From IMG/VR virus record IMGVR_UViG_3300000983_000001, positions 22,891 through 86,890 of that record: a stretch of 64,000 nt of DNA; one strand, 5' to 3'. A program made the translations under genes and the position numbers. The notes under the pieces are model-generated. The model had not been told where the DNA came from and searched no databases. It saw only the letters and a list, made by a program, of their open reading frames with translations. The DNA is from a virus. Below are positions 1,140-27,400 of this stretch, piece by piece. How positions within the stretch are numbered: position 1 is the stretch's first letter; the number at the start of each line of letters is the position of its first letter.

Positions 1140-1168
1140 ATGCTTAGGGGAAACTCTGAGCATTTTTT
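1140..1168 (+). terminator. Rho-independent terminator
   Basis: Stem ATGCTTAGGG / CTCTGAGCAT with a GAAA tetraloop, followed by TTTTT. It implies the next CDS starts at ATG 1182, not 1140. Confidence 0.75.
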
Positions 1169-1181
1169 ATATGCAATATTC

Positions 1182-5888: not shown

Positions 5889-5896
5889 ATATAAAA

Positions 5897-7444
5897 ATGA
5901 GTAAAAGAAATAAAAATATAGATTGGGTAAAATATTTATCGGGTGGCACAATTTATCCACATGTAAAAAACCCGTATGATGTTTTAGCCAAGAATCAACA
6001 AGATATTGCTCATGCTAAATATAAAGCATCAACTAATCCTTTAACTATAGGTATGCGAGGTTTAGGTCATTTGGCTATGCAAGCCAGTATTAATTCTGGT
6101 GGATTAGGTAATTTACCGTTCTTACAAAAAAATGGTTTAGGTGACTTTGCCAATATGGTGATGGGAACTGCTGCAAATATGAATTTTGGTTTGGGTGGAA
6201 ATGTGAAAAGAGTTGGTGTTGAAGTTGAAGGAAAAGAAGTTGCGGAAAAACCCAATGGAGAAATTGTAAAATTTCAAGGTAAAGATCATGAACAAGGTGG
6301 TGTTAAAACTAACTTAGAGGTAGGTACAGATGTTTTCTCTAAGCGAATAAAGGTTGATGGTATTTCAATGGCTGACAGAAAACTGAAAAGAGAAAAATTA
6401 GAAAATAAATATAAAAAAATATTAGCTTCACCAGATATAAAAAATGATCCTTTAAGAAAAAAAACATTAGAGTCTAATCTAAAAACTTTAATGAGTGAGA
6501 ATGAAAATGATAAAAAAATACAAGAAACCTTAAAAAATTTTAGTTCAGGTGAGCAGAATTTTATGGGAGGAGGTACAGTAGAAGATGATGATGAAAATGA
6601 AACTTTTGGTTGGACATATAATAAAGAAACTGGAAATTGGGATTTATTTGATGATAAGGATAAGCAATTAAAACCAGGTGAATGGGACATGAATGGCACA
6701 GGTGTTGGCGGTTTTACACCTAGAGGGGGTCAACTTTATATACCAGAAGATAAAGAAGAACCTAAAACTAATAAAACAGGTCTTACAAACCCTTTAGTGG
6801 CTTCTGGTGAGGGTGTAGGTACTTATGGCAATGCACTTAGTATGTTAGGTACTGCTGTCGGCACTGTTGGACAATTTGGATTAACACATAAAGCACGGGC
6901 TACTGCTCCCCCTAATGTGAATAGCTTTAAAGATTATGGGAGAAGAGGTTTAGAGACATTAGATAAAAGTAAAGATTTTGTTGCTCAAATGCGAGATTCA
7001 AGCTTGCAAGATTTAGAGCTATCTAGGAATGCAAGTATTCAAAGAGGTAGAAATAGTGCTAGAGGGGTGAATCAAATGAGAGCTTTAGATTTAGCCTCAA
7101 CTCAACAGGCAAATCAGCAAGAAAGAAGTATCAACAATGATTTTAGTAACTCTATGATGGGTATATTGAATCAAGAGGCTGTTATGCAGAATCAGCAAGA
7201 TAGTGTTGTTATGCAAGGTGAAGATAACAAGCTTACTAACAATAAAAAAGATCATGGAGCTTACTATAGTAATTTGTCTAAAAACCTTTCAGATATGGGA
7301 TTAGGTTTACAGCATTTAGGTAAAAATTTAAATGATGTTCAAAGAGATAGAGCGATGCTTAGGTTAATGACAGAGTTAGAAAAATATGGTATAACTTCTA
7401 ACAGCAAAGGACAATTTGTAACAAAAAAGAAAAAGAAAAAATAA
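5897..7444 (+). CDS. Ejected/cargo virion protein 1
   Basis: 515 aa with an EVEGKE...FQGKDHEQGGV block, three [FY]xxGG motifs and a Gln/Asn-rich helical C-terminus. It lies between the tail stabilisation gene and the vRNAP. Confidence 0.6.
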   Translation: MSKRNKNIDWVKYLSGGTIYPHVKNPYDVLAKNQQDIAHAKYKASTNPLTIGMRGLGHLAMQASINSGGLGNLPFLQKNGLGDFANMVMGTAANMNFGLGGNVKRVGVEVEGKEVAEKPNGEIVKFQGKDHEQGGVKTNLEVGTDVFSKRIKVDGISMADRKLKREKLENKYKKILASPDIKNDPLRKKTLESNLKTLMSENENDKKIQETLKNFSSGEQNFMGGGTVEDDDENETFGWTYNKETGNWDLFDDKDKQLKPGEWDMNGTGVGGFTPRGGQLYIPEDKEEPKTNKTGLTNPLVASGEGVGTYGNALSMLGTAVGTVGQFGLTHKARATAPPNVNSFKDYGRRGLETLDKSKDFVAQMRDSSLQDLELSRNASIQRGRNSARGVNQMRALDLASTQQANQQERSINNDFSNSMMGILNQEAVMQNQQDSVVMQGEDNKLTNNKKDHGAYYSNLSKNLSDMGLGLQHLGKNLNDVQRDRAMLRLMTELEKYGITSNSKGQFVTKKKKKK

Positions 7445-7445
7445 G

Positions 7446-10406: not shown

Positions 10407-13400
10407 ATGTTTGGAGACGGAGATAAAAATAAAAAGCAGAATAAAAATAATGCTTTAGATTTAACAACAGGTAAAATTGTAGAAGTTGAAGATAGGGTTG
10501 TAGTTATTAACCCTGCTACGGGAAAGATGTATAAGACTACAAATCCTTTACGTATTGACCACAGAGCAGGTACTATGAATGTTGATCCTGTCATGCAAGA
10601 GGAATTTGAGAATCTAGGTATTAATCCCACTCAAAATGTTCGTGAGGACATAGGGAAAACAATTATTGCGAAAAATAAACCTTTTTTGGATCAAGCAGGT
10701 AACGCAGTTAAACAGTTTGGTTATAATACTGTAGGTGGATTTGGTATGGCAGTTAGTGGCAACGATCTTGGGGCAGCTATTGATATTGCTAAAGGTGCTG
10801 AAAGAGAATATGAGAATGCTTTGTTTAAATGGTCAAATGATTTGATAAAAGAAGGTAAAGAGAAATACCCTATTTTTCAAGAAGCAGAAGGAGCAGTTAA
10901 TCCAGGTGATCCTAATTGGTGGTTACAGCATGGAGCAGATTTTGGTACGTCTGGTGGATTTGCTGCATATTCTGTTGCAGAGTCAGTTTTACTTGGTATA
11001 GCAACGGCTGAAACAGGTGGAGTTGGAGCTATCGCAAATCTAGCAAGTAAAGGTCAAAAGATAGCTAAAATTAGAGAATTAAGTGCAGCTAAAAAACTTA
11101 AAGACTATTTTAAAGCAAATAATAGCACAAAAGTAATAAGAAATCAAGCTTTATTAGGAGCTTCACAGGGTTACAGAGAGGGTTTAGTTGAATCTTATGA
11201 TTCCTACACAAGTATAAAAGAAGATTATTTAAAAAAGGGATATACAGAAGAAGATGCAAAAAAATATGCCTCTTTAGGTGCAGTTAAGACTTTTAGAACA
11301 GGTGTATTACCTAATATGATTTTAAATTCTGTCAGCCTTGCTGCAACTAGCTATAACCCTATCACTAAAAAATCTAAGGGTATATTAGATAGAAAAATTA
11401 AAAACCCTGTAGCTAAGGGTGTAGCCAATACTACGGCTGATATGGCTAATGAGTTCACTGAGGAGTTTATACAAAGTGCAGCACAAAAAGAGGGTCGTGC
11501 AGCAGCCGATTTAGCAGCAGGAGAGAAAGAAAAAGGAATAAGTTTAACTGAACATTTAACAGACGAAGAAAATTGGAATGCAGGGATAGGTGGAATATTT
11601 GGTTCAATAGGATTTAAAGGTTTAAGTTACCTTAAAAATAATAAAAATGCGAAATTACAAGATGCTCATTGGGCAGAAAAACATTCACAACACATAGAAG
11701 CTTTAAATAATAGAAGTTTAGGTTATTTAAAATCTATTAAAGAAGCCGAAGATAAAGAGGATTATGGTGAATCAATTAGATTACGTAGAGAAATGAACTC
11801 TCAAAACACCTTAAAATCTTTATATCTTGATGATGTCTCTGATAACGATAGTGGTTATAAAGGTCAAATGGCTTATTACGAAAATGTTTTAAACTACATT
11901 AATACTGGACAAACAGAGCTACTCGAAGAATTAAAAATTCAACCAGAGGATTACGATTTCATCAAAGAAAAATTTCCCATATATATAAAAGATAGCAAGA
12001 ACATTAAGAAACATTATGATATTGCTAAGGAAAGACATTCTTCAAATGCAGTTCTGCCTATAACAGAGAATAAACATGCATTAGATTTAATTAGAGAAAA
12101 AAGAGAATCAGTTAAACAAGATATTGAGGATATTAAGTCTAATAATGGCTATGATAAATTGTCTGTAAGTGGGCAAAATTATTTAGAGGATTCAAGCAGA
12201 TTTACTGATCTGTTGATAGCCTCAGAAAACACTTCAATAACAGAAGATCAAAAAAATGAGATAGATGAATTAAGAAAATCTTTATCTTATAGGAGAGAAC
12301 TAAGAGATCAAAAAATAGATTTAAAAAATGACCATGAAGATTTCCAATTATCTCAGGATTTAAGCAAAGACGATGACTTGATATGGGAGCTAAATAATAC
12401 TGATAAAGATGGTAAGACTATCAATTCGTTTGAAGACAAAACACCTAAAAATTTAGATTTTAATAATAGGTTATTAGGTAATTTAAACAAAGCTGAGAAA
12501 CAACTTCAAAAAAACATTAAATATTGGAGTGACCCTAAAAACCAAATAGCAGAAGCCAAAAAAGAAACTTTTAGACAAGTTGATGAAGCTGAGACAGTTC
12601 AAGAGTTGGAGCAAGCAGAACAGCAGTTGGAGCAACTTCAAGAAGCCACTGCCCCAAAGCAAAATGCAGAACAAGTTGATGAAGCTGAGATAGTTCAACC
12701 TAAAACAACTGAAACCCAAGAGATTGAACTTAAACAAGCAGAAGCCAAAGCAAGAAAAGAGGCTTTAGAGACTACCCAAAATACGGGTCAAAATGTAGAG
12801 ACACCTTCAATACCTAAACCAAAAAAGGGGAATTTGACTTTAGGTGACATATTAGCTAGTCAAGGTGATTTTGTAGGTTTATCAGAAGAAGGCAATTCAA
12901 ATGAAGATTTTGATAGATTAGATGCTATGTTTGGAGAAACACCAGATATAAATTTTAATGAAGATACAAATAATCTCGCAGGAGAAGAAGATCATTTAAC
13001 TTTTGACCCTGTAGAGTTTACCCCTGAGATAGAAGAAGATGAAAGATTAAACGATGCTGCTGATATAGTTAAAAAAACAAGAAAAAGATTAAGTCAAGAA
13101 TTAGGTAGAACTTCTACATTTAAAGATTATATTGAAAAATATATCTCATTAAAAGGTAAAGAGTCAGCCGACAAACTTTTTAATGTGTTTAAATGGTCTT
13201 GGCAAAAGAATAAATTTCAAAAAACAAATTTTGATAAAGTTTATGATCAAGTTTTTAATACTTACGAAGCTTTAACAGATAAATTAACAACTTTAGGTGA
13301 TGCTATTGTTGAACCAAATACACCTGATGTTGTAGAAAAAACTAATAATGATTTTATAAAAGAAATAATTATGCAAGAAAAACCAGTTGAAAAATTAGAC

Positions 13401-16400
13401 CAAAACAATCAACCTGTAAATACTCCTGTTAGCCATAATTTAATTACTCACACAGGTTTAAGAGCAGACTACGAATTAGCTCAGGTGGAAGACAATAAGC
13501 TCGTGGGAGAAATTGTACAAAATCCAGTAGCACTTTTTGACAGCGAAAATCTAAACTCTAAACAATTGTTAAACCCCGACAAGTTTAATTCTGGTACTCC
13601 TATGATGGTAGAAATACCTGATAATTATAGAGAGTTAAAAGTTCAGACTTGGGAAGATGCTTTAACTAAAGGTGAAGTTATGACTTTTCAAAATTGGATG
13701 GATAAAAATGATGTGAGTCGAGGTAGTCAAGAGTGGTTAGATAAAGTTCCAATGTTTGCCTATGAATTAGATAGTAATGGAGAAAAGGGGGAGGCTATTT
13801 TCAAAATTCACTCAACCGATAACTACAATTTAACAACAGTTGGTGAAGGTTATAAATCTCAATTAGAGATGATTGAGGAAGGTCGAGGTGAAATTAGTAA
13901 AATAAGACAAAATGTATTTGCAAATGATTCAACCGAAATAACCATAACTGAAAAAAGAATTGGTAGTTGGATAACCGTAGACGAACCTATAACTCTAAAT
14001 CAAGCAAACCCTGATAGTGTACTGGTTCTAGCTACTAAGACAGGTTTTCTTGTTAATGGTACAAATGAAAGATTTGAAACAAATGGAAGAGTTATACTTA
14101 ACAAAGATAAAAACTTTCGACCAGGTAGCATATATGATTTAAGAAAAGCAACTAACAAAAACGAGTATATTGCTTTTCAGGTTATACAACCATATTTAAG
14201 TAAAGAAAATATTGAAACTGCTGCGGATATAGTAAGTATTTATATGCACCAGTTGGATGTTAAAAACACTTATGGTAAAAGAAGTATTCACAAAGAACAA
14301 GCTAAAAAAATTGAGGATATAACCAAACTTAATATCGCCAGTGGTTATAAGTATGACGAAGAAGGTCAAACTTTTATGGATGATGATTTTGAGGAACTTT
14401 TGTTTTCTTTGGTTCGAGTTAAAACTTTTAGGGGTTTAAGTAGTATAGAAGACTTACCTCAATATTTAAATAAAACTTATATAAGCCCTAGTGGTGAAAC
14501 TGTTCCTTTAATTAAAAACGGAGAAGCTTATGTTATTAAAGTAGGTAAATCTCTTGCTATTGGGATTAAAGGTAAAAAAATAGGTAAAAAATTAGATTAT
14601 TTATTTTTAAACCCTTACATGGTAGCTAAAGGTAAAACTAAACCTTTTATAATTGATAATTTTCTAAAAGTTTTAAAAGAAGATGTCTTACCTAAAATAA
14701 GGCATAATATTAACAAAGATAGTCTTAGAAATAACAGAAAATCTGTTCAAATTTCAGATGGTGTTGTTTCCGAAGGTTCAAACTATAGAGATCACTTAAA
14801 AAATACTCTGCAAACGACAGTAAAATCTTTTAATGTTGGAACTAAAAATAAACCATTTTATGCAACAATTGTAAACCCAAAGATCAGTTTTAAAGTAAAA
14901 GGAGAAAACAAAAAAGAGACCTTTAAAGAACCTGTGTTAGAAGAAGATTTTTCAGATGTTGAACCTTTGGTTGGAGAAGAAAGTGTCCCTAGTGAAGTCT
15001 CAGAGGCTTTACAAGCACTAAAAGATTTAGGCATAGATTTAGATAGTCCCGATATACAAAATGATCTTGATGGAACAGGTATTAACACAGATGACTATTT
15101 AAGTCTTGCAACTTACACTAATTTAAATTATGAAAATATTAAAAGTAGTCGCAAAGCTGTACCTGAGTTAACCTCGCTTCAAAATTATGAGTTGGTTAAT
15201 TTTATTTTCAATAAAACAATTGAAGCACTTGGAACAACTAAAAAATCAAATAAACAAGATGTTCTAAGATTAATTAAAAAGTCTTATATGGATAACATAA
15301 GACCTATCAGAACTAAAAACAGACGTTTAATAAAAACCTTAGAGGGACAACCAAAATATGTTAATATTGTAAGTAGACTAAAAAAAGAAAATAAGGTATT
15401 TGAAGATATAAACAACAGTTGGACAGCAATTGAAACTCAGGCATTTGATAAAATCAGTAAATATTTTCCTGGTGTCAAAGAAGTTTATGATATAACAACA
15501 GATGAATATGAAGAAAAAGATCATAGTAAGATTTCATTGGAATTAAGTGGTAAAAATACCGCATCGAAAAGATTAAAAAAATTCTTAGTCGCAACTAAAG
15601 ATATAACAAGTAAAGGAGAAGTGAAAAGAGGTTATTTAGGTGTTGAAACTTATATAAGTTTTGACGAAGTATATAACAATATAGAGAAAATATTGTCTAC
15701 ACCCTATGAAATGCTATCTGATTTTGATTTAATGTTATTGAGACTTGAAGAAAATACCGAAGCCTATAAGTGGCTACCACAAGTAATTAATAAGCTTAAA
15801 AATGCACCTCAAAGAGTTAAAAACGAGTTTACTTATAATTTTGCTAGGCATACATTAAGTATGAAATTTATTATGTATTCTAAAGGTAAAGATGGTAAAT
15901 ATACTTTAAAAGTTTATGACACTAACGCAGGAGAAATAACGAGAACGATCAGAGAAGCATGGCAAAATAATTTAAAGGCTAAAAATTTAGTTGGACTCAA
16001 TGAAGATACAGGTTTGCACAATATAAATAAAGTGGAAGCACAAAAACTTTTATCAGAGTATAATGATTGGGTAAAATTGCATCAACTAGACTACAGTAAA
16101 ATAAAAAATGAAAAGTTATTAACTTGGTTAGATAAATTTGGTTTATCTTTGTCGGAGGAGACTTTAGACGAACTAAAAACTAACAACACAGAAATTATAA
16201 CTAACGAAGGTAAATCAAAAGTTGCTTTTAATTCTATGTTTGTTAAGGGACAAAATACACCTGGTATATTTGGTTTATTGGCAGATTACTTAGAGGGTAT
16301 TGTTAAAAAAGATAACACAGATTTTGATGAAAACCCATCTAATCATCCTTTTAATAATGCTAATAATGTGTTAAAAACTTTATCTAAAATTGAAAGTAAA

Positions 16401-19400
16401 TACTCAACTACCACGACTACTAACTCTTTTAGAGACGGCGGTAAATCTATATACGGATTTACACAATCTAAATATATAACAGATTCAGTCAGAAGATTAA
16501 AATATGACAATGATTATAAGCAAACCTTAAAAAGTAAATCTTTTAACGGAAAATCTTTTATATTAGATTTATTAATTAACTCGGAAGATTTTCAGAATAA
16601 ATTTGGTATTAGTCATGTTGGCATCAACGCTTTTAAGGAGTTAAATAAGAAATATTATGGTGTTTCTGAATTAACAGGTTTACCAGATAAAGACCAAGAA
16701 GGAGTTAAACTTGGTTTCTTTCAAGATATGAAACAGGGAACTTTAAGTGATACTATTGGTGATAGTATCAAGATGAGAATAGCAAAGATGTTTGTTCCCA
16801 CAATGTCGGACAAATCCCAAATGACAGTTTTAAATACGGCTGTTCTAAATATCAGAGATAAGCATTTTGATATAAGTCAAAAAGGAGAATTGAAAAATAA
16901 ATATAAATTTAAAAATGAATTAAAAGAAGTTTTATATGACCAGTTGATTTTACCAGAGTTAGATCGAATAGTTAATTTTAATTCTGTGGTTGAAAAAACT
17001 AATATAGCAGGTTATGATAAAGCTGCTAAATTATTCTTAATGTTTCCTCAACTGAGTAACCTAAAATATTTTGATAAAGATATAGGTAAAGATAAGCGTG
17101 TGATTTCTCTTATGGCATCTAACCCAACGAAATTTAATAAACGTTGGTTTGAAGATAACATAAAGGAAAAAGCCATAGATAGAATTATAAATATAATAAA
17201 AACAAAACATGAAGATAAATTAGCTCAATGGGAGAGAAATGAGTTTTTCACAAGAAAAAATGGAAATATAAGTCAAGTTAAATATTTAGATAACAGCTAT
17301 TTAAATACGATAGGGGGTGCTTTGACCACTAAGGTTGAAATAGCTGCTTTAGATTTTATTATAAATAGTATGATTAGTAATGCAAATGTTCACATGACAA
17401 TTGCAGGAGATATTGCTATGTATTCAAAAGATAAAATAGGAAAATATTTTAATGACGGAAATGTTATATCACCTAAAGATGAATATGGAGATGAGGCTTA
17501 TATTTTAGCTGTGAAAGATGTTATTGAACCAAATTTAGGTAAACGAATGGCTTTGCTTATTGCACCTGGTAACAAACTAGCAGGTTCAGACAGTAAAAAT
17601 GAAAAAAATAATAAATATGTTCAAATTTTTGTTAACGATTATAAAGTTGCAACTAAAAATATTGTAACTTTAGTTGATTTATATTATACCGCAGATGATG
17701 TTAAGATAGCTGAGGAGTTAGTGCAACAGTATGAAAATGCAACTACATTTGAGGGTAAAAAATTGGTAACAGAAAAATTAGGTAAATACTATCCTGAGAT
17801 TAAAGACTACTTTGACTTAGAAGCTACAGATGCCCAAGAATATACAACATCTGCTGAACACATAAATGTACTTTGGAAACAAGGTAGACTTGATGATGAC
17901 CAGTATGTATTAATTCAAGCTAAATTAAAAAGACAGTTTGAAGCAGAACAAAAAGGAAAGGAAATAAATAAGACAGATTTACTAAACTACCAAGAGCTAA
18001 AATTAATTTTGCAACCACTTAAACCAGTTCATGCAGGCTTTAAAGATGAGGTAGATTATGATTCAATGAGAATGGTTTATGTAAAATCTTCTTCTTTCCC
18101 TTTAATACCTCAATTAACAATTGGCACGGAATTAGATGGATTGCGAAAATTGTTAGAAAAATACGAAAAAAAGCGAGAAAAATTCGTAAGGGTAAGCTAT
18201 CAGTCTGCAAATAAAGTTGGAGCTAACACCAATTCTGTAAATCTTTTTAAACCTAATGGAGATTTTAATAATAAATTAACATTAGAGATGTTAGATAATG
18301 CTTCTCTCACTTTGGACAGAACTAATTTTAGAATACAACAGGATGTACCCTATAAAAGTGACAAAAAATATTCAGATAAAGTTTCTATTGGAACTCAGAC
18401 GTTAAAAATGTTGTTTGGGGACGGTATAACTGATATTGAAGCTAAAATATTTAATTTCAAAGGTAAAAAATATAATGGTAAAGGTTTATTGAAAATTTTT
18501 AATGGTAACTTTGAAAGTTATATACAAGAACAAAAAACCAACTTATTAGATGAATTAGGTGTAGATGAGTTTGGTAAACCTCTTGATCCTGTTAAGACCT
18601 TGACTAAGCTGCAAAATATCTTAAAAGATGAAGCAAACAAAAGAGGTTATCCAATACAAGATGTCGAAGCTTTAGGCTTGTCAACTAAACTAGATAAGCA
18701 CGGTAAAGTCGTGGATATTCAATTTGATTTGCCTCTTTGGTTAAGTCCCAATTCTAACCGATATGAGGCACTTTTAAACTCTATTGTCACTAATAGATTG
18801 GTCAATATAAAAGTACCAGGTTCTAGTTATGTAGTAGGCTCAGAAGCAGGTTTTAAAACTAAATCTTTAGGTGAAATACAAAACACAACCAAAATTGCAA
18901 GTACTATTTTTGAATTGAGACCTAATATATCTGATAAAGAGATTATAACCATATATAATAGGTATAAAAAATTAATGAATATAAAGAGGGAAGGTAAGCA
19001 TATGTCCTTTGATAATTTTCAGAAATTTTTGAAATCAAGCCAAGTTTTTAATTACAAAAACACTTATATTTTTGGTAATTATGACTATAAAAATGGTGTT
19101 TTTATAACTAGAGTTAATAGTTCTCCAACCAGTAAAGAGTTGTTAGCCGAAGCATTACCTAAGCTAGTTGAACAGGGTATAGATTTTGTTTCTTTTGTTC
19201 CAGAGGATTTAGCTAAAAAATATGTAAGAAGTGGTTACCATCAAAGTAAAAGTAGTTTTGCTTATAATTTTAAGGGTGAAGATATGGATAAATTTATGGT
19301 CACTTCACAAAAAAATATTGCTAATAAAATATTTAACAAAAATCTTGAAGAAATATCAGGAGAAGATATTAAACAATATAATAAAGAAATACCTTTTAAA

Positions 19401-22400
19401 TATCAACCCACAGAAATCACAGGTGATTTAATTGAACAGGCAGGTAAAGATTTAAATAAGATATTAGAAACCTATTTAAATCAATTTGGTATTGTTGTAA
19501 AAGACTTAAAAGAAATACAAGAAAACTTAAATGTTGATAGTTTAGGTTTTGCCGACATTTTATCAAAAGTAGCTTATACAAAAAACAAAGAAGATTTACC
19601 ACCAATTGCTGGAGAATTTATTGCATATATGATGCAGTATAACCCTTTAGTCTCAGAGATAATAAAAGAGTTATCTGAAACAAAAGATTATAAAGGTTTA
19701 GATAAAGCCGATTACTTTAAAATTATTGGAGAATTAATAGCAAAAGATTTATCAAATAAACTAGATGGAGACTACAAAAAAAGCCTATTAGATAAAATCA
19801 GAGAATTGGTGGCTTTGTTTTTTGATAAAATGAAAAGTGTTCCTACAAACACTATAAATGAAAATATTGGTATTATTTCTAATAACATACTTCAACAAAA
19901 CAAAAAACTTATTACAGCAAGTCTTTATAAGCCTGGTGCATTTGGTAAACCAACAAAACAAGTTTCATTAAGTGAAGCCAAAAATTCAGATTCTTTTGGT
20001 AAAATTATAATTGAGAATTTAGGGGCAAAAGGTTTTATTCTAACTGGCTCTACAGCACTTGGAGAACAAGGTACTATACAAAGACCTAATGAAAACTTAT
20101 TGCATGATATAGATTGGGTTTCACCTTTTAGTCGAAAAGAAACAAAAGAAAAGTTCTTAGATAGTTACCCCGATGCTATTTTTGTAAGAGCTATACCAAA
20201 TCAAGATTATACAACAGATTCTTATATAATCTCACCTGATGGCACTAAAATAATAGATTACAAAACTAAAAAAATAGGGGAAAAAATAATAATAGATTCT
20301 TACAATGTAGCCAATAAAAAAGGAGAAATAATAGGCACGTACAAATTAGAAAAAAATAAAGATAATAAATTAATAGAGAAAGTTACAGGTGTTGAAGCTA
20401 AAGTTATTGATTTTTTCAGCTATGAAAACTACAAAGGTTTAAAACCCTTTAATAAAGATGGTTTAAATTTATCAAACTGGAAATCAATTTTTCAAGCTAA
20501 GTTAGATTTTGCTAGATATAAAGATATTTGGGATTATAACAGATTTATTCCTAATGAAAATTTACCTTTTATAAAAAATAAAGATATTGACCAAAAACCA
20601 AATTTATCCAAAATAATTTACACCTCCGCTTGGACAGGATCACTAAAACCTGCGGAAATAATCGAAGGTAAATTAAAAAAAACCCAAGTTTTATTGCCAT
20701 CTAAGTTTAGAACTAATGAGGGAAAACTGATAAACTTTTTCGATGAAAATGGTAATCACAATGAAACTTATGTTAAAGTAGATAATAAAGGTAACTATAG
20801 ATTAAAAGAAGATAAAATTGATCCTGAATTACTTTCGTTGACCTCTTTTAGAATACCTACATCTGGACACGTTTCAATGTCCCAACTAGAAATAGTTGGG
20901 TTTTTACCTAAAGAAATGGGTGATCTTTTGATAGTGCCTGCAAACCTGACTGCTCAAAAAGGCTTAGATTTCGATATTGATAAGGAAACAACTTATCAGT
21001 ATAATACCTATGTAGATAAAGAGGGTAATATTCGTGTTTTATCTGAGGAACATAGAAATGAGATATTAGCTGATTCAGATAAAGAACTTCAAGAGCTAAA
21101 AGCTGCTGTAGAATCAGGAGAACAAGATGCAAAGCTGCTAATAGATATTTTTGGAGATGACATATTGAATGAAAACTACACAGAGGAAGATTTTAAAGCT
21201 AATAAACACCTTAAAAAAGTAAACAGTAAGCTTACCAGTAAAATACTGGAAAATGACTTTGTAGGGGTTCATCAAGCTATTTTAGGTAATTCGGATAAAA
21301 AGGTTCAGGGTAAAATTAACAAAGTTTTATCAATGGATTTTGCTAATTCACAAAAAGAATTAGTGAGAAGTGTAACCAAAAATTCAAAGGAATTAACTTC
21401 TTATACGTTGCTTGATGACACACACCAGAAAAATAAAATGGAACTCGGAGCATCTGGTAAACTAGGCATTGGTGTCTATTCCAACTATTCAGTTTTCGCC
21501 AGTTTAGTGCAACAAGCAGAAAATAAGCTTATATTAAAAGAGCAAATAAAGTTACCTTCTGGTAATGTCGTTAAAGATATAACCTTTAATTTAGGTAATA
21601 AATACTTTGATGGTAGGATAGGCAGAGTTAACTCTATATCAGGTAGGAGTATAGCCGAAGCATTTGCAGAACGACAAAATACCGCTACAGATAATGAGAA
21701 AGAACAAATAATGGGTTCACTTAATATAAATAGTGTAACTATTAATGTTGATTCTCTGTTAACTCTAATGGGTTTTGATAAAGATTCTTTTGAAATTACC
21801 AAAGAAGAATATTTAGAAAATCCTATCAGTGCAATAGTGAAAAAAGGTAAATATTACAGGGTAGTAAGTCTACCTTACATGTTTCTTAATCAACCAATCA
21901 TAAAAGAATATGTTGATAAAATCAGAAGAAGTAAATCTTTAATATCTAAATTTGATCCAGCGGCCGAAGCTAAAATTATTGCAGAATTAAAGGATAAATA
22001 TGGAGAAAAAGATAAAATTAAAATAGCCAATGAAAGAATGCTGACAGGTAAAAATCTTTTAGCTAATATCTCAGGTAAACCAGATGGAGGCATACAACTT
22101 CGGGTATTAGAGTTATTTTTGAAATTAGATAAGATAGCTAAGAAGGTAGCTAAAATACAGAAAACTCTTAATATTAACAATGGAGGTTTAGGTAAATCTT
22201 TTTTTGAGACTATCAATAAGTTTGACAAAATAAGAAATTTAAAACTGGATTATGATATAGTTGTGAGAAAGAGTGGTAAAATTAAAATGGAAGGTTCTTT
22301 TGCTATACAAAATATAAGCAGTTTAGTTGGAGATTATCGTTATTCAGATAAGGCTATAAAAGGTTTTGTTGATATGGGAGATGGAATATACATTAGACCA

Positions 22401-24464
22401 AAAACGCCTATTGGTAGTATGGCTGTACATGCCACTCAAACAGGATTTAACCTTTGGGGTAAATATTTTCCCTATGGAGATAAATACATAACTAAAGCAG
22501 TCGAATTTATAACTTCTGAAATCGGAGGAGAAGAAATATCTCAAAGAAAAGAAGTTGAGATATATGAAACCGTATTTTCTGAAATGAAAAAATATTTTTT
22601 TACATCTAAAGTTTTAGGTTTGTATGAAGGAGATGTACAAAATAAAAGATATGAGTTATTCATAGATTATAAAGACAAGAAAAAGTCTTTAGCCACTTAT
22701 TTAAGTGATCTCTCTTTTGACAAAGAAAGTCCTGTTAAAGATAATACTCTACTATCAAGGTTTACTTATAAACTATCAAAAACAGGTGTTCCCTCTTTGA
22801 TTCAATTTAACAATACTAAAGCTGAGAATTTTGATGAAGAATATTTATATCAAGGTATTACAGAATTATTGGAAAAAAATATAGAATTACCTAAATTTAA
22901 TGATCGAGAGTATAGCAGTAGAGAACTAGCTGTTGATCTTATTGCATATGCTTATTTAGAGGGTGGTATTCAAAAAGCTGTTCAGTTTGTTAAATATATA
23001 CCAATTCCATTACTTAAACATATCCCTTTTGCTAAGTATACTAGAGAATGGGATAATAGGTATAGACCTGATATTTTTGGTAAAATGTTAGGTTACTTTG
23101 GTGATGTAAGTTCTACTACTTTTTTAGATCAATTTAGTCAAAATAATCTTGAAAAACTAAGTAAAGCCGACTTGAAAGATTCAGGTATCATTAATAGATT
23201 CTATGGAGATAATACACAAAAATTAGATTCTTTAGTTGAATTTAGTTTAGATAAAGATACTGTACAGGGACAAAAACTAAAAGAAAAAGTTTATATTTCT
23301 ATATACAATAAAAATATTAAACACGGATTACCAAAATTTCAAGTTTATAAAAAAGACGGAAATTTATATAAAAGAATATCTGTTTTAGGTGCTTTTGGTA
23401 TGTCCGAGTATGATATGAATAACCCTTCAATAGATTCTCTTGTTAACAAAAATTTTAAACCTGAATTTCATGGTGTATCTCTTGCAAGTTTGCCTAAGCA
23501 GAAGCCAGTTAAAAATTTAGATTTAATTGGTGTGACTTTGATAGAAGCTTTAAATCAAATTACAAATTTAAATTTAAAAACAGACAAACATCTTAAAGTT
23601 TTAAGTAAACTCTTGACTCGATATGTGGGTAATGACATTAAATTTGATATAGCGGATATAGTAAACAAAAAAGGGGAACATATTGGAGCAGGTAGTTTTA
23701 ATAGCAAAAAAAATCTGTTAACTATAGATAGGCGATTTTATGCAGAATATCCTGATTCAGAAATAGCTAAAACATTAGTTCATGAAACTATACATGCTTT
23801 AAGTGTAAATTATATTAGAAAATATGTTAACAGAGATGGAACTTTAGTTGAAAACACTCAAACACCAGTAGAAATAAACGAACTTATTAAACTTTTTAAT
23901 TCAGCAAGAAAACATATTGGTATTGATAAGATAAATAAATTAATTGAAAAGCAGAAAAAACATCGAATTGGAACACTAAAAGAAAAAATAACTTCCTATG
24001 AAACAAGTGTTGTATATGGTGGAACAGATATATCAGAATTTATAACCTTGATATTAACAGAACCAAATTTTCAAAAAGAAATGGCTAAAATTGAATATCA
24101 AAGTAACCAATCTATTTTAGATAAAATGGTTGATATAGTTTACTCAATTCTTAATAAAATTTTTGAAAATGGTTTGAGTAGAAACAATGTAACCTTTCAT
24201 GGTGTTAAAACTTCACTGCAAATTATTAAGCAATATGATTCCAACAAAAAAGCAGTGAAATCTGAAAATTTGAATACCCTTAAAAGTATGGATACCTCAA
24301 ATAGAAAAGCTGAAACCCTTATTGAAAATGTTGCACCTAAACCAGAAGTTAAAGGGTTATTTGGTTTACCTCCAATTGATTTAACTCATCTTCAAGCAAA
24401 TGAGGAAGATATAAATTTTAACATAAAAGAAAACATTATAACTAATCCATTTAAATGTAAATAG
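10407..24464 (+). CDS. Virion-packaged DNA-dependent RNA polymerase (double-psi beta-barrel, phi14:2 gp66-like) with accessory domains
   Basis: 4685 aa. Catalytic DFDIDK at nt 20967-20984, preceded by RIPTSGHVSM and GDLLIVP. Upstream blocks ATDAQEY, LKPVH and VKSSSFPL. C-terminal HETIH zincin motif at nt 23781-23795. Confidence 0.9.
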   Translation: MFGDGDKNKKQNKNNALDLTTGKIVEVEDRVVVINPATGKMYKTTNPLRIDHRAGTMNVDPVMQEEFENLGINPTQNVREDIGKTIIAKNKPFLDQAGNAVKQFGYNTVGGFGMAVSGNDLGAAIDIAKGAEREYENALFKWSNDLIKEGKEKYPIFQEAEGAVNPGDPNWWLQHGADFGTSGGFAAYSVAESVLLGIATAETGGVGAIANLASKGQKIAKIRELSAAKKLKDYFKANNSTKVIRNQALLGASQGYREGLVESYDSYTSIKEDYLKKGYTEEDAKKYASLGAVKTFRTGVLPNMILNSVSLAATSYNPITKKSKGILDRKIKNPVAKGVANTTADMANEFTEEFIQSAAQKEGRAAADLAAGEKEKGISLTEHLTDEENWNAGIGGIFGSIGFKGLSYLKNNKNAKLQDAHWAEKHSQHIEALNNRSLGYLKSIKEAEDKEDYGESIRLRREMNSQNTLKSLYLDDVSDNDSGYKGQMAYYENVLNYINTGQTELLEELKIQPEDYDFIKEKFPIYIKDSKNIKKHYDIAKERHSSNAVLPITENKHALDLIREKRESVKQDIEDIKSNNGYDKLSVSGQNYLEDSSRFTDLLIASENTSITEDQKNEIDELRKSLSYRRELRDQKIDLKNDHEDFQLSQDLSKDDDLIWELNNTDKDGKTINSFEDKTPKNLDFNNRLLGNLNKAEKQLQKNIKYWSDPKNQIAEAKKETFRQVDEAETVQELEQAEQQLEQLQEATAPKQNAEQVDEAEIVQPKTTETQEIELKQAEAKARKEALETTQNTGQNVETPSIPKPKKGNLTLGDILASQGDFVGLSEEGNSNEDFDRLDAMFGETPDINFNEDTNNLAGEEDHLTFDPVEFTPEIEEDERLNDAADIVKKTRKRLSQELGRTSTFKDYIEKYISLKGKESADKLFNVFKWSWQKNKFQKTNFDKVYDQVFNTYEALTDKLTTLGDAIVEPNTPDVVEKTNNDFIKEIIMQEKPVEKLDQNNQPVNTPVSHNLITHTGLRADYELAQVEDNKLVGEIVQNPVALFDSENLNSKQLLNPDKFNSGTPMMVEIPDNYRELKVQTWEDALTKGEVMTFQNWMDKNDVSRGSQEWLDKVPMFAYELDSNGEKGEAIFKIHSTDNYNLTTVGEGYKSQLEMIEEGRGEISKIRQNVFANDSTEITITEKRIGSWITVDEPITLNQANPDSVLVLATKTGFLVNGTNERFETNGRVILNKDKNFRPGSIYDLRKATNKNEYIAFQVIQPYLSKENIETAADIVSIYMHQLDVKNTYGKRSIHKEQAKKIEDITKLNIASGYKYDEEGQTFMDDDFEELLFSLVRVKTFRGLSSIEDLPQYLNKTYISPSGETVPLIKNGEAYVIKVGKSLAIGIKGKKIGKKLDYLFLNPYMVAKGKTKPFIIDNFLKVLKEDVLPKIRHNINKDSLRNNRKSVQISDGVVSEGSNYRDHLKNTLQTTVKSFNVGTKNKPFYATIVNPKISFKVKGENKKETFKEPVLEEDFSDVEPLVGEESVPSEVSEALQALKDLGIDLDSPDIQNDLDGTGINTDDYLSLATYTNLNYENIKSSRKAVPELTSLQNYELVNFIFNKTIEALGTTKKSNKQDVLRLIKKSYMDNIRPIRTKNRRLIKTLEGQPKYVNIVSRLKKENKVFEDINNSWTAIETQAFDKISKYFPGVKEVYDITTDEYEEKDHSKISLELSGKNTASKRLKKFLVATKDITSKGEVKRGYLGVETYISFDEVYNNIEKILSTPYEMLSDFDLMLLRLEENTEAYKWLPQVINKLKNAPQRVKNEFTYNFARHTLSMKFIMYSKGKDGKYTLKVYDTNAGEITRTIREAWQNNLKAKNLVGLNEDTGLHNINKVEAQKLLSEYNDWVKLHQLDYSKIKNEKLLTWLDKFGLSLSEETLDELKTNNTEIITNEGKSKVAFNSMFVKGQNTPGIFGLLADYLEGIVKKDNTDFDENPSNHPFNNANNVLKTLSKIESKYSTTTTTNSFRDGGKSIYGFTQSKYITDSVRRLKYDNDYKQTLKSKSFNGKSFILDLLINSEDFQNKFGISHVGINAFKELNKKYYGVSELTGLPDKDQEGVKLGFFQDMKQGTLSDTIGDSIKMRIAKMFVPTMSDKSQMTVLNTAVLNIRDKHFDISQKGELKNKYKFKNELKEVLYDQLILPELDRIVNFNSVVEKTNIAGYDKAAKLFLMFPQLSNLKYFDKDIGKDKRVISLMASNPTKFNKRWFEDNIKEKAIDRIINIIKTKHEDKLAQWERNEFFTRKNGNISQVKYLDNSYLNTIGGALTTKVEIAALDFIINSMISNANVHMTIAGDIAMYSKDKIGKYFNDGNVISPKDEYGDEAYILAVKDVIEPNLGKRMALLIAPGNKLAGSDSKNEKNNKYVQIFVNDYKVATKNIVTLVDLYYTADDVKIAEELVQQYENATTFEGKKLVTEKLGKYYPEIKDYFDLEATDAQEYTTSAEHINVLWKQGRLDDDQYVLIQAKLKRQFEAEQKGKEINKTDLLNYQELKLILQPLKPVHAGFKDEVDYDSMRMVYVKSSSFPLIPQLTIGTELDGLRKLLEKYEKKREKFVRVSYQSANKVGANTNSVNLFKPNGDFNNKLTLEMLDNASLTLDRTNFRIQQDVPYKSDKKYSDKVSIGTQTLKMLFGDGITDIEAKIFNFKGKKYNGKGLLKIFNGNFESYIQEQKTNLLDELGVDEFGKPLDPVKTLTKLQNILKDEANKRGYPIQDVEALGLSTKLDKHGKVVDIQFDLPLWLSPNSNRYEALLNSIVTNRLVNIKVPGSSYVVGSEAGFKTKSLGEIQNTTKIASTIFELRPNISDKEIITIYNRYKKLMNIKREGKHMSFDNFQKFLKSSQVFNYKNTYIFGNYDYKNGVFITRVNSSPTSKELLAEALPKLVEQGIDFVSFVPEDLAKKYVRSGYHQSKSSFAYNFKGEDMDKFMVTSQKNIANKIFNKNLEEISGEDIKQYNKEIPFKYQPTEITGDLIEQAGKDLNKILETYLNQFGIVVKDLKEIQENLNVDSLGFADILSKVAYTKNKEDLPPIAGEFIAYMMQYNPLVSEIIKELSETKDYKGLDKADYFKIIGELIAKDLSNKLDGDYKKSLLDKIRELVALFFDKMKSVPTNTINENIGIISNNILQQNKKLITASLYKPGAFGKPTKQVSLSEAKNSDSFGKIIIENLGAKGFILTGSTALGEQGTIQRPNENLLHDIDWVSPFSRKETKEKFLDSYPDAIFVRAIPNQDYTTDSYIISPDGTKIIDYKTKKIGEKIIIDSYNVANKKGEIIGTYKLEKNKDNKLIEKVTGVEAKVIDFFSYENYKGLKPFNKDGLNLSNWKSIFQAKLDFARYKDIWDYNRFIPNENLPFIKNKDIDQKPNLSKIIYTSAWTGSLKPAEIIEGKLKKTQVLLPSKFRTNEGKLINFFDENGNHNETYVKVDNKGNYRLKEDKIDPELLSLTSFRIPTSGHVSMSQLEIVGFLPKEMGDLLIVPANLTAQKGLDFDIDKETTYQYNTYVDKEGNIRVLSEEHRNEILADSDKELQELKAAVESGEQDAKLLIDIFGDDILNENYTEEDFKANKHLKKVNSKLTSKILENDFVGVHQAILGNSDKKVQGKINKVLSMDFANSQKELVRSVTKNSKELTSYTLLDDTHQKNKMELGASGKLGIGVYSNYSVFASLVQQAENKLILKEQIKLPSGNVVKDITFNLGNKYFDGRIGRVNSISGRSIAEAFAERQNTATDNEKEQIMGSLNINSVTINVDSLLTLMGFDKDSFEITKEEYLENPISAIVKKGKYYRVVSLPYMFLNQPIIKEYVDKIRRSKSLISKFDPAAEAKIIAELKDKYGEKDKIKIANERMLTGKNLLANISGKPDGGIQLRVLELFLKLDKIAKKVAKIQKTLNINNGGLGKSFFETINKFDKIRNLKLDYDIVVRKSGKIKMEGSFAIQNISSLVGDYRYSDKAIKGFVDMGDGIYIRPKTPIGSMAVHATQTGFNLWGKYFPYGDKYITKAVEFITSEIGGEEISQRKEVEIYETVFSEMKKYFFTSKVLGLYEGDVQNKRYELFIDYKDKKKSLATYLSDLSFDKESPVKDNTLLSRFTYKLSKTGVPSLIQFNNTKAENFDEEYLYQGITELLEKNIELPKFNDREYSSRELAVDLIAYAYLEGGIQKAVQFVKYIPIPLLKHIPFAKYTREWDNRYRPDIFGKMLGYFGDVSSTTFLDQFSQNNLEKLSKADLKDSGIINRFYGDNTQKLDSLVEFSLDKDTVQGQKLKEKVYISIYNKNIKHGLPKFQVYKKDGNLYKRISVLGAFGMSEYDMNNPSIDSLVNKNFKPEFHGVSLASLPKQKPVKNLDLIGVTLIEALNQITNLNLKTDKHLKVLSKLLTRYVGNDIKFDIADIVNKKGEHIGAGSFNSKKNLLTIDRRFYAEYPDSEIAKTLVHETIHALSVNYIRKYVNRDGTLVENTQTPVEINELIKLFNSARKHIGIDKINKLIEKQKKHRIGTLKEKITSYETSVVYGGTDISEFITLILTEPNFQKEMAKIEYQSNQSILDKMVDIVYSILNKIFENGLSRNNVTFHGVKTSLQIIKQYDSNKKAVKSENLNTLKSMDTSNRKAETLIENVAPKPEVKGLFGLPPIDLTHLQANEEDINFNIKENIITNPFKCK

Positions 24465-24468
24465 TCTT

Positions 24469-27400
24469 ATGCCTTGTGACAGTAAAAAAAATACAATCAA
24501 TTACCTAAAAAGTTTAAATGTTTTAGGTGAACAGTCTGTTATACTTAATTTAGAGGAGTTTAACAGATTAAACGGAGAATATACAAAAGAAGCTAAATCT
24601 ACCTATAAATTAGATTTTAGTGGTAATATCTTCAATGTATCTAAAGTTAAATTTGAAGGTAAAACAGTTTATGTTGCAGAGTCTAATGATAATATTTTCA
24701 AAACTATTGATAAATATATTAATGAAGATTTTGATGATAATAATTATTATTCTACACCTAATACTGAAAATAAAATAGTGCCTTTTTATGATAAATATAT
24801 AGCCTATAAGAAAAATTTAATAACACAGTTAGAGAAACTTCTAGCTAATTTAGAAAAAGATATTAAAGATAATTCTGCTAATTTAAGTAAAGTTAAAGTA
24901 TTAGTAGCTAAAAAACAGCAAGTTTTAGATAGACTAGAAGGAACAGAAGATATAGGGGATATAGGACTAAAAGAAGAAATTAGTCTATTAGATAAAAAAC
25001 CTAGTATAGATGAATTAAAGTTTTATATAGAAAAAGATTTATCAAGATTAGACACTTTAATGTCAACGGATAGTTTAGAAAATTATAAAGAGGCTCAAAA
25101 AATAATTAATTTCTATAAAGCTATGGGGACATTCCATAGCAGTGAAAAACATCCTCTTTTTTATGAACAAAAAGTTTCTGATATAGATGGAAGTGTTCAA
25201 ATATTTAATACATGGGACGATGGTTCAGGTAAAAATATACTGCCTCAGTCTACTATAGATATGTTCACAAATATAAGAAAAAAAGTAGAAGAAATTGAAT
25301 CTACTTTATATAGAAAAACAGAAAATTTAGCTGTTGAAACTTTTAATAGTGATTCAGGTGTTAGACGAACTTACGGTGATAAAATATTTACAGCAGCCGA
25401 GATATTTAGTAAAGAAAAAGGGAGGCAAGATATTAATTGGGTAGATATGTTCGTAATGGATATTACCAATGGTATTTTTACTGATGATGGTGAATTGCCA
25501 CAGGTTATGTTAACTGTACTTCAAAATAGTATGAATAGCAATTTAGTCTACTCAAAAGGTGTTGAAAAAAGAGTAGACACTATCCAAGATGATGTCGTAA
25601 AAGTACTGAAATCAATGGGATATGGGATAGGTATACCAGGAATTAAAGGGGCTAAGTATGATATTTTCAGAGCAAGTAAAGATGTTTATTATAGTGATTC
25701 AGGGGCAGTTGTCAGTTTCAATGTCTCACATGATGAAAATGGTAAACTTAAAAAAGGTTTCACTAAAAAAAGTTTGTTTAAAGACTCTATAGTTCAACGG
25801 TATTCTCCTGAGTATTTTGATAAGAGAACAGAAATGTTAGGAGACTTTAATAAACAGCTTAAAGCAGCAAATAATGGAGGTAATTTTAACACAAGACAAA
25901 CATTAAGAAAAAGTGCTTTTAATTTCCGCAACAACTGGTTGGATAAAAACACTTATATTTTAGAGGCAGGTAATATACCTGAAATTATAAATGATTCTCA
26001 ATTCTCTGAATTTAAAGAATATTTTGCTTCAAATAAAGCAGAAGGTTACAAAAATTTTTTAGTAAACCAACTAGGAGAATTTGGATATAAAGAAGAAGTA
26101 GATAAACAAATTAAACTTTTAAAAAGCTATAAAGTTGCTTTAGAAGTTAAAAAAGAAGGTTTATTAGCTCAGGAAAACGTAGAGAAAGTTGAAGATTTAC
26201 CAAACAACATATTGAAACATCTTCATATTTGGAAACAAACAAACAATCCTTTTGTGGCTGCTTCAATTATCAATGACAAAAAAGAAATTCATATAGATGG
26301 TATTCAATATCATAGTTTTATGAATTATAATTACACCATACCCCGAAAAAACAAAGCTAAATTAGTTGTTAAAGGGGGGAAATTAGTAAAACAAGAGACC
26401 CAAGAAAGTACAGGTTACTTTGATGAAAATTTTAAAGTTATTGAAGGTAATAGCACCTTAAAAGATTTTCATAACATATTACAAGAAGTAAATAATAAAA
26501 TATATGAACACATACCATTAAATAGGAGATCGGATTTTAACATCTATTCCATACCCAAACTAGAAAAAACTATCTATGAGATATTAGCTTCTGAGGAGTA
26601 TTCTTTTTTGACAAAAATATCTAAGATATATGCTGCAACAATGAATAGAATTAAAGATTTAATAGGTATAACTCCTCAAAATACTCTTTCATATGTACCT
26701 GTTGATCCTATCACGGGGAAACCAGAGTATAAAGTTAATGATGGGTTTTTAAAGACTAACAAAAAAGAAATAGAAACAAGGCTTAATCTTGAACTTGATA
26801 GGATTAAAATGGCACTCAACTTTCCTCCTAACATGAAATTAGGCAGTCTCGATACTTGGGATTTAACTGCACCGTATTTCACTAAAGAGGCTATTGCAAT
26901 TATAGCTGAATCTATGGGAATAAAACCTAATATAAAAGCTTTACAAAAAAGATTGCCAGATTTAAATATAAAAGCAGTTGATATATACAAAATTGTCAAA
27001 GCAGGTATAACTGACCAAGTAGTTAGGGAAAATAGTTTTGATTTACCTAAGATAATTAAGTTGTTTTCTCATTTAACAATGGAGTATAAAGCTCGAACTG
27101 AGGTAAAACCCCTTTTAGAGATTATGAAATCTCATTACGAAGAAATTAAAAAACCTGATATAACAAATTTAGGTGAAACTTTGATAAATGCAAGAACTAA
27201 AGAAACCAGACTAGATGGAATCAGAGAAAATGCTAACAGGAGAATGGATTCATGGTTTAAGCGATCAGTATTAGGTAATTATGGTAATCAAAATGAGTTA
27301 GGTGATACTAGAATTAATCCAGGAGAAACAGGTTTTACTGGTATAGAGCAAATAGATAAATTAACAACTATGTTGCAAACAACTGTAACAGGTAAGCTAA

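Follow-up and report, generated by a model that had tools for sequence, protein, structure and literature searches.

A predicted GNAT–helical–nucleotidyltransferase cassette inserted in a crAss/FpV4-like virion RNA polymerase

The window analysed here, a 64,000-nucleotide stretch of viral DNA (positions 22,891 to 86,890 of the IMG/VR record IMGVR_UViG_3300000983_000001), encodes a giant virion RNA polymerase (vRNAP) polyprotein, P0001, the polymerase part of which is interrupted by a 573-residue insert that the closest relatives of the protein lack. Three domains are predicted in this insert, namely a GNAT-fold domain, a helical domain and a nucleotidyltransferase (NTase) of the Pol-beta superfamily, and we consider it probable that the whole is a horizontally acquired effector cassette, which has landed in a permissive surface loop of the polymerase. 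By analogy with other phage cargo proteins, its most likely function would be that of an injected enzyme pair that modifies the host or counters its defences. The original prediction, made from the DNA letters, had described an insert with an NTase at this position. An NTase is indeed predicted there, but the GNAT-fold domain had been missed, and the insert is a three-domain cassette and a widespread mobile module.

The insert and its site in the polymerase

Among the PHROGs, P0001 matches phrog_16227 ('virion structural protein', E = 0), and the best matched stretch ends at residue 2823. BLASTP aligns the protein with gp32 of the Flavobacterium phage FpV4 in two blocks, of which the first pairs residues 1422-2819 with gp32 1608-2982 (36% identity) and the second residues 3401-4608 with gp32 2991-4218 (32% identity), leaving 581 residues between the blocks in P0001 versus 8 in gp32. 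The alignment with gp66 of phage phi14:2 is likewise split, residues 2465-2816 corresponding to gp66 952-1246 and residues 3455-3945 to gp66 1299-1767. P0001 has DFDID and is homologous to gp66 before as well as after the Connector, which makes it one of the two-barrel vRNAPs of the gp66 family; since phmmer with residues 2400-3900 gave zero matches among PDB sequences at E <= 0.001, the gp66 homology rests on pairwise BLASTP. Both gp66 and gp32 share DFDID and the giant cargo gene block with the window phage and have a short loop at the insert site, whereas P0001 has 573 additional residues with two enzyme-like domains. The genome, which comes from a metagenome alone, is a complete virus record of 87,646 bp with direct terminal repeats, and it contains one vRNAP and one cassette. 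As the interrupted gene is the sole vRNAP copy in a complete genome, it must be the working polymerase.

When residues 2600-3600 are used in tblastn, the giant structural gene of FpV4-type Flavobacterium phages is matched in two pieces spanning only 375 codons, and phi14:2 g066 is matched around DFDID. The insert itself gave zero tblastn matches in 50,697 GenBank phage records, and the cassette is therefore carried by no cultured phage in that set. A search with the polymerase block that follows the insert found 209 homologues, the closest metagenomic ones being 45-47% identical; the best 119 of the 209 (<=47% identical) were analysed, and in 118 of them both flanks of the insert site gave an anchor. 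The gap at the insert site ranges from -10 to +19 residues in 115 of these, and neither a GNAT nor an NTase domain was found anywhere in the 118 anchored homologues. The alignment thus bears out the suggestion that the segment is an insert and not part of the ordinary polymerase fold. Its exact limits, residues 2828-3400, were set by eye on the alignment, and the interval first proposed (18870-20600) falls within ~20 nt of them. The sequence blocks on which that proposal relied all lie in frame in one open reading frame (ORF), with IKVPGSSYVVGSEAGF at residue 2801 (nt 18807), VIDFF at 3333 and AKLDFARYKDIWD at 3364, and downstream LKPAE at 3413, QVLLPSKF at 3427, FRIPTSG at 3481 and DFDID at 3521. 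At the junctions, the insert is held between ...GSEAGFKTKSLGEIQNTT and SKIIYTSAWTG..., for which the FpV4 counterpart reads GSESGFRMKENLEGVDK-SRIIYLDSYNG. The insert had also been called AT-rich; its GC content of 0.266 is the lowest of all equal-length windows in the ORF (mean 0.296, standard deviation 0.015), but the difference is only modest. A search for direct repeats around the junctions returned only AT-rich chance matches and hence no recombination scar.

In gp66, the Connector that links both double-psi beta-barrels comprises residues 1095-1238, and DFDID starts at residue 1361. The block preceding the insert ends opposite gp66 1246, which places the cassette immediately after the Connector, where the second barrel is entered. 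Three relatives hold unrelated inserts in the identical loop, between GSEAGFK.. and S.IIYT.W.GELK. The insert of P0201 (residues 2713-2916) has 202 residues and no family was found in it, whereas those of P0220 (residues 2785-3506) and P0258 (residues 2098-2981), with 720 and 882 residues, respectively, are superfamily 1 (SF1) helicases of the RecD/PIF1 type with matches to AAA_30, AAA_19, PIF1 and UvrD_C_2. Judged from these alignments, cargo has been inserted repeatedly in the loop that separates the Connector from the DFDID barrel. The two barrels lie on different subunits in cellular RNA polymerases, which makes a long excursion or a chain break at this junction plausible. The two-barrel polymerase tolerates inserts of 200-880 residues here, a property that bears on polymerase evolution (single-chain versus split beta/beta') and on engineering.

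Predicted folds and conserved residues of the cassette

The AlphaFold2 (AF2) model of the first domain, built from 32 homologues, has a mean predicted local distance difference test score (pLDDT) of 92.1 and a predicted template modelling score (pTM) of 0.87, and it is of the GNAT fold (beta1-alpha1-alpha2-beta2-4-alpha3-beta5-alpha4-beta6-7). The top 50 Foldseek matches in the PDB are all GNAT acetyltransferases with probability 1.0, SpeG polyamine acetyltransferases among them, and the top 50 VIA-align matches are also all GNATs (best 3ey5, Z 10.1 over 149 aa, root-mean-square deviation (rmsd) 3.4). A motif-B-like P-x-D-x-A-x-K-[YL]-x-R-S-G-Y is found in the alignment of the domain, and Pfam detects no acetyltransferase family at E <= 1 in P0001. 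In the helical domain, conserved residues include F3027-G3028 and G3069..I-A-x-M3075-x-Q-x-N3079. We assign no fold to this domain because its structural matches are weak (Certhrax/lethal-factor-like, that is zincin-like, proteins at Z 4.7-5.5 and an IrrE-N-like AFDB entry) and HExxH is absent from it.

Residues 3005-3400, covering the helical domain and the NTase, were modelled by AF2 from 47 sequences (pLDDT 88.9, pTM 0.85), and the C-terminal part is predicted with high confidence to adopt a Pol-beta NTase fold, in agreement with what had been read from the motifs. In model numbering, strand 207-209 is followed by helix 211-215 with the G-S pair, D3234 and D3236 lie on strand 230-235 and D3335 on strand 328-334, which in the model is the classical Pol-beta arrangement; a beta-meander of ~70 residues sits between the DxD strand and the strand of the third Asp. 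Foldseek places Helicobacter pylori JHP933 first in the PDB (4ok0/4o8s, E 5e-4, probability 1.0), followed by Megavirus poly(A) polymerase, MenT1, TM1012, LnuA and TglT. VIA-align, run against 48,161 chains, gives ANT(2'') at Z 7.5 (130 aa, rmsd 3.7), TglT at 7.2 and MenT1 at 6.9, and below these Megavirus poly(A) polymerase at 6.6, a CCA-adding enzyme at 6.3, MenT4 at 5.9, LnuA at 5.8 and LinB at 5.7, all of them covering model residues ~186-384. AFDB clusters repeatedly return 'AbiEii/AbiGii toxin family' with probability 1.0, and ESM Atlas clusters return AbiEii, DUF6036/NTP_transf_5, Aminoglyc_resit and phage Poly_A_pol_cat (template modelling (TM) score 0.49-0.67 by hit); the ESM Atlas feature search gave no usable match. 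A profile of 57 NTase domains searched against PDB sequences found only JHP933 (E 0.075), aligned across the N-terminal helix and motifs I-II.

The motifs are conserved beyond chance. Conservation was measured over 47 core sequences and 57 NTase domains with identities to the window copy down to 22%. G3214 is invariant in the 47 core sequences and S3215 is kept in 46 of them, H3233, D3234 and D3236 are invariant in both sets (47/47 and 57/57), and so are K3332, D3335 and F3337; R3226, P3227, N3230, A3364, K3365, R3370, K3372, D3373, D3376, N3378 and the K3175-P-G turn are invariant or nearly so. The predicted catalytic residues are thereby defined precisely enough for direct mutational tests. 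ILTGSTAL (residue 3211, nt 20037-20060) and LHDIDWV (residue 3232, nt 20100-20120) are exactly 13 residues apart, as first reported. The general signature hG[GS]-x9-13-DhD that had been invoked fits less closely, as its motifs are present but 18 residues intervene between S3215 and D3234, a longer, JHP933-like spacing.

Like the DUF1814 proteins, which include AbiEii, MenT1/3/4 (TglT) and JHP933, the cassette NTase has a Pol-beta core with G-[GS], D-x-D and a third Asp. Its C-terminal helical motif, K-x4-R-x-K-D-x2-D, resembles motif IV of that family (K...R-x-[KR]-D-x-x-D), which has been described as unique to DUF1814 (PMC7450476). The proposal that this motif is AbiEii/MenT-like agrees with RTKARDLFDL of JHP933, which resembles ARYKDIWDY of the window protein; the HMMER domain 2 that covers motif IV is non-significant. 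The cassette differs from DUF1814 in several respects. PF08843 matches neither P0001 nor any of the 47 homologues (E <= 5), and scanning the genome with it in all six frames gave no match either. The toxin-antitoxin layout is missing, the NTase being fused inside a giant virion protein, in a 4685-residue ORF, with no antitoxin partner and no adjacent small partner gene. The ~70-residue meander is an extra element of the sheet, and the 166-residue helical domain comes before the NTase, whereas DUF1814 proteins have a large helical domain after it. MenT-type enzymes have a regulatory auto-phosphorylation site in a Ser/Thr that precedes the first Asp by two residues (PMC7450476, PMC11375011); the cassette has Leu3232 there instead, followed by the invariant His3233. 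ANT(2'')-Ia, LnuA and LinB share with the cassette the NTase fold and a G..A...R..H-D-I-D-type motif. At the sequence level, the cassette has no family match to these enzymes or to the GNAT acetyltransferases, and it sits in what would be an injected phage protein and not in a resistance gene. Coordinates of all features are given in Table 1.

Table 1. Features of P0001 and of the inserted cassette (positions in the window)
Feature	Residues	Position	Strand	Remarks
Giant ORF P0001	4685 aa	10407..24464	+	uninterrupted; crAss/FpV4-like virion RNA polymerase polyprotein
Polymerase block 5' of insert	1422-2819	14670..18863	+	ends at GSEAGFK strand, equivalent to gp66 ~1235-1246
Inserted cassette	2828-3400 (573 aa)	18888..20606	+	missing from 115/118 closest vRNAP homologues
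Domain 1, GNAT-fold (acyl-CoA N-acyltransferase-like)	~2829-3000	18891..19406	+	AF2, Foldseek, VIA-align
Domain 2, helical	3005-3170 (166 aa)	19419..19916	+	always accompanies the NTase
Domain 3, Pol-beta superfamily NTase, DUF1814 (AbiEii/MenT/JHP933) and ANT(2'') type	3176-3394	19932..20588	+	
NTase motif I, G3214-S3215	3214-3215	20046..20051	+	start of helix after strand 1; alignment and model
NTase motif II, H3233-D3234-I-D3236	3233-3236	20103..20114	+	strand 2; predicted metal-binding carboxylates
Third carboxylate, D3335	3335	20409..20411	+	strand K3332-x-I-D-F-F; invariance and model
DUF1814-type motif IV, K3365-x4-R3370-x-K3372-D3373-x-x-D3376	3365-3376	20499..20534	+	all invariant
Polymerase block 3' of insert	3401-4608	20607..24230	+	restarts at S-K-I-I-Y-T-S-A-W
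Catalytic DFDID, second double-psi beta-barrel	3521-3525	20967..20981	+	equivalent to gp66 1361-DFDID-1365
HETIH zincin-like motif	4459-4463	23781..23795	+	candidate polyprotein-processing metallopeptidase

Distribution of the cassette and comparison with polyvalent proteins

When 1.84 billion cluster representatives were searched exhaustively with HMMER, 227 proved to be carriers at E <= 1e-3 and 64 at E <= 1e-30; the 227 are clusters at 50% identity, and almost all are giant phage cargo (polyvalent) proteins. A word-indexed search among giant proteins gave 57 cassette carriers of 2577-6631 residues. Carriers lie in the giant-gene block that also encodes the DFDID polymerase, and the position of the cassette within it varies. 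It is C-terminal in the polymerase-bearing proteins P0005, P0006, P0011 and P0014, directly precedes the polymerase block in P0032, and is near the N-terminus in proteins of 2600-3000 residues without detectable polymerase similarity; only in the window phage, among the carriers, is it inside the polymerase. On L003, an 87,692-bp NCBI phage contig, a 62% identical cassette is part of the 2958-residue P0009 (L003:10001-18877), which lies upstream of the DFDID gene (L003:18886-23898) and has an ART-PolyVal ADP-ribosyltransferase domain directly after the cassette, and on contig L006 the cassette is two genes downstream of the polymerase. The parts also occur separately, the GNAT domain without the helical-NTase core in P0099, P0101 and P0154, and the core without the GNAT domain in P0036-P0059; a Pfam scan upstream of the core in nine GNAT-less homologues found no families. 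In the same carriers, identity to the window protein is 50-64% for the cassette and 23-46% for the polymerase flanks. Because the cassette is more similar than its flanks and the closest polymerases lack it, the sequences follow the pattern expected of a horizontally acquired cassette with a history incongruent with that of the polymerase.

Two further arrangements were seen among the homologues. The 91.7-kb contig L004 encodes a stand-alone helical-NTase core of 453 residues, P0106 (L004:550-1911), and the neighbouring protein of 1208 residues (L004:2012-5638) has a second, N-terminal copy of the helical domain (35% identity to residues 3015-3119 of P0001). In P0025, an AAA_33 domain (a polynucleotide-kinase-like P-loop kinase, residues 647-776) directly follows the cassette, which may be a hint of nucleic-acid end chemistry.

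P0001 is a giant multi-domain protein in a virion gene block with effector domains shuffled among its homologues, and in this it corresponds to the polyvalent proteins, which are likewise giant, virion-delivered and multi-domain, with effector domains that change place within a protein or from one protein to another. The homologues of P0001 also contain ART-PolyVal, helicase, NADAR and kinase domains, as polyvalent proteins do, and P0001 has a candidate zincin-like HExxH in its C-terminal part. A survey of polyvalent proteins described N4-like vRNAPs fused to ART, lysozyme, PBECR and MPTase domains, and reported Pol-beta NTases from no polyvalent proteins other than those of conjugative elements, where they are minimal, MNT/NTox45-like and fused to ArdC-N (Iyer et al. 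2017, PMC5512222). In contrast, the NTase of the window protein is DUF1814-like, encoded by a phage and joined to GNAT and helical domains, and its polymerase is of the two-barrel crAss type, with the module inside the core rather than appended. The original prediction knew of no earlier description of such a fusion, and this stands in part: the cassette being a widespread polyvalent/cargo module, the fusion of effector domains to a virion polymerase is a known theme (PMC5512222), but this NTase family and its internal insertion are not described there. In the literature searched, we found no report of a DUF1814-like NTase cassette on the phage side such as this one, which family databases miss and which is here embedded in a two-barrel RNA polymerase. 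Among the viruses of Bacteroidota, crAss-like phages and their relatives are some of the most abundant, and the role of their multi-megadalton ejected cargo is largely obscure. Two enzyme-like activities that are invisible to family databases, NTase and GNAT, can now be named in hundreds of clusters of phage cargo proteins, and DUF1814/MenT-like NTases, so far bacterial toxins and abortive-infection effectors, are extended to the phage side of the conflict.

Possible functions of the cassette

The polymerase and its cassette are probably injected into the host, by analogy with phi14:2, in which gp66 and its neighbours are virion proteins by tandem mass spectrometry and gp66 enters the host cell by translocation. 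Cargo proteins of crAss001 are ejected partly unfolded and then refold. In the mechanism that we propose, the polymerase with the attached cassette would travel inside the capsid and be ejected into the host either before the DNA or together with it. After refolding, the NTase would draw on an NTP, with D3234, D3236 and D3335 coordinating two metal ions, and attach a nucleoside monophosphate to a hydroxyl group on a host target, while the GNAT domain would acylate the same or a second target. The cassette could stay tethered to the polymerase or be freed by the zincin-like protease of the polyprotein, and it would serve early host takeover or counter-defence, not transcription.

Of the possible acceptors, host RNA 3' ends or tRNA are the ones we place foremost, without holding them to be probable; the nearest characterised relatives, the MenT enzymes, modify tRNA 3' ends (PMC7450476, PMC11375011). 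A host protein, modified by an AMPylation-type reaction, ranks next as a possible target, and protein substrates are favoured for polyvalent NTases and GNATs by Iyer et al. 2017 (PMC5512222). A small molecule or signalling nucleotide as acceptor is doubtful, phage early transcripts are improbable in this role, and an inactive NTase is more improbable again. A more far-reaching picture, which we put forward tentatively, would be that of an undescribed and widespread family of injected effectors (~227 clusters) that modifies a host target early in infection by nucleotidylylation and acylation, the target possibly being the acceptor ends of tRNA or a protein of defence or transcription. The polymerase loop that follows the Connector and precedes the DFDID barrel would then be a dedicated dock into which different cargo, such as the cassette, SF1 helicases and others, is swapped, and the protease may cut on both sides of the cassette, giving a freed cassette and a functional two-chain polymerase. 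Such cuts may occur because the junction would be the counterpart of the boundary between the beta and beta' subunits in cellular RNA polymerases.

Several observations weigh against the interpretation of the cassette as an active enzyme pair of this kind. The canonical R/Q-x-x-G-x-G/A loop between beta4 and alpha3 of the GNAT domain is replaced by a conserved R2902-x-N-S2905-S-P-x-S-K, and the Tyr of motif B is Leu in many homologues, so that, from its sequence, the domain may be inactive or take another donor. Structural scores for the NTase are middling, with a best Z of 7.5, a Foldseek E of 5e-4 and a TM score by query of ~0.2-0.3, the last being low because the model holds two domains. 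None of the three domains is recognised by a Pfam, PHROG or NCBI-style model. Scanning P0001 in full, the insert and the NTase part with Pfam and PHROG gave only sub-threshold noise (CTD8, Annexin), and Pfam found no NTase family in the 47 core homologues at E <= 5. The NTase assignment is nevertheless supported by four concordant fold searches on the model together with the motifs. As to the target, the median isoelectric points in the homologues are 5.2 for the NTase and 5.7 for the GNAT domain; both domains are thus acidic in most homologues (the window copy is basic), and nucleic-acid binding is therefore not favoured. In addition, an enzyme that blocks tRNA would hurt the phage's own translation, and no tRNA genes are encoded in the window.

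If the NTase acted in cis, it would add poly(A)/(U)-like tails to phage early transcripts, cap them or prime them, which we regard as distinctly unlikely. The virions of poxviruses and giant viruses contain a poly(A) polymerase alongside their RNA polymerase, the cassette of the window phage is physically inside the polymerase, and insertion beside the catalytic barrel would put the NTase near the RNA exit; the structural matches include the Megavirus poly(A) polymerase 4p37 (probability 0.96, Z 6.6, 150 aa) and, from the ESM Atlas, a cluster with Poly_A_pol_cat proteins of Uroviricota (TM 0.61 by hit). However, the same 50-64% identical cassette also occurs at termini far from the barrels, in separate cargo proteins and in giants without a polymerase, and it is because the cassette is usually far from, or outside, the polymerase that we disfavour transcript tailing. 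Moreover, the closest polymerase relatives work without it, the SF1 helicase in the same loop elsewhere points to a site that is permissive rather than functional, and it is not evident what the attached GNAT domain would contribute to tailing. Alternatively, the pair could detoxify or modify a small molecule, such as a cationic, aminoglycoside- or lincosamide-like antiphage metabolite, a polyamine or a defence signalling nucleotide, on the model of AAC (GNAT) and ANT (NTase) enzymes. ANT(2'') is the best VIA-align match and LnuA and LinB are listed below it, the longest ESM Atlas alignment is with the Aminoglyc_resit (PF10706) cluster (154 aa, TM 0.63 by hit), SpeG is among the GNAT matches, and most homologues have an acidic NTase and an acidic GNAT domain, a property often seen in enzymes with cationic substrates. 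We still judge this reading unlikely: ANT(2'') and MenT/TglT are not separable, with Z differences < 1, JHP933/AbiEii comes first in Foldseek, in the PDB profile search and in AFDB, and the reason for injecting a few copies of a detoxifying enzyme rather than expressing it is hard to see.

A catalytically dead cassette, used as a structural spacer or as a packaging or ejection domain of the cargo protein, would fit the failure of all family hidden Markov models to recognise its domains and the non-canonical cofactor loop of the GNAT domain. We consider this reading very unlikely, as every expected Pol-beta/DUF1814 catalytic residue is invariant in 47-57 sequences that are otherwise down to 22-30% identical, and conservation is higher in the cassette than in the polymerase bearing it. 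Selfish elements, such as an intein or homing cassette spliced out of the polymerase, could also produce a clean, lineage-specific, in-frame insertion in an essential gene. Yet the junctions (...QNTT/KIAS... and ...KPNL/SKIIY) have no Cys/Ser at the N-junction and no His-Asn before the C-junction, the predicted folds are GNAT, helical and NTase and not Hint or homing endonuclease, and no direct repeats beyond chance flank the insert. The intein reading is rejected, since junction residues and predicted folds are both contrary to it, which leaves a selfish element of any kind a negligible probability; that no intein signatures are visible had been noted at the outset. The preferred reading is thus still that of an acquired, injected effector cassette.

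Outside the cassette and the polymerase blocks, the HETIH region of P0001 gives a weak SprT-like Pfam match (E 0.0034, 17.7 bits versus a cut-off of 25.6), and FpV4 gp32 keeps the zincin-like motif as HEVIH. The N-terminal part of P0001 (residues 1-1421, window 10407-14669) is without any Pfam family and has an acidic, Gln/Glu-rich low-complexity stretch around residues 720-800; only residues 871-1240 of this part weakly resemble FpV4 gp32 (26% identity). Giant ORFs of 1582, 515, 983 and 1581 residues flank the polymerase gene on the same strand (window 1140-10397 and 24469-29214), which is the layout of the cargo and RNA polymerase-associated gene block of crAss-like phages.

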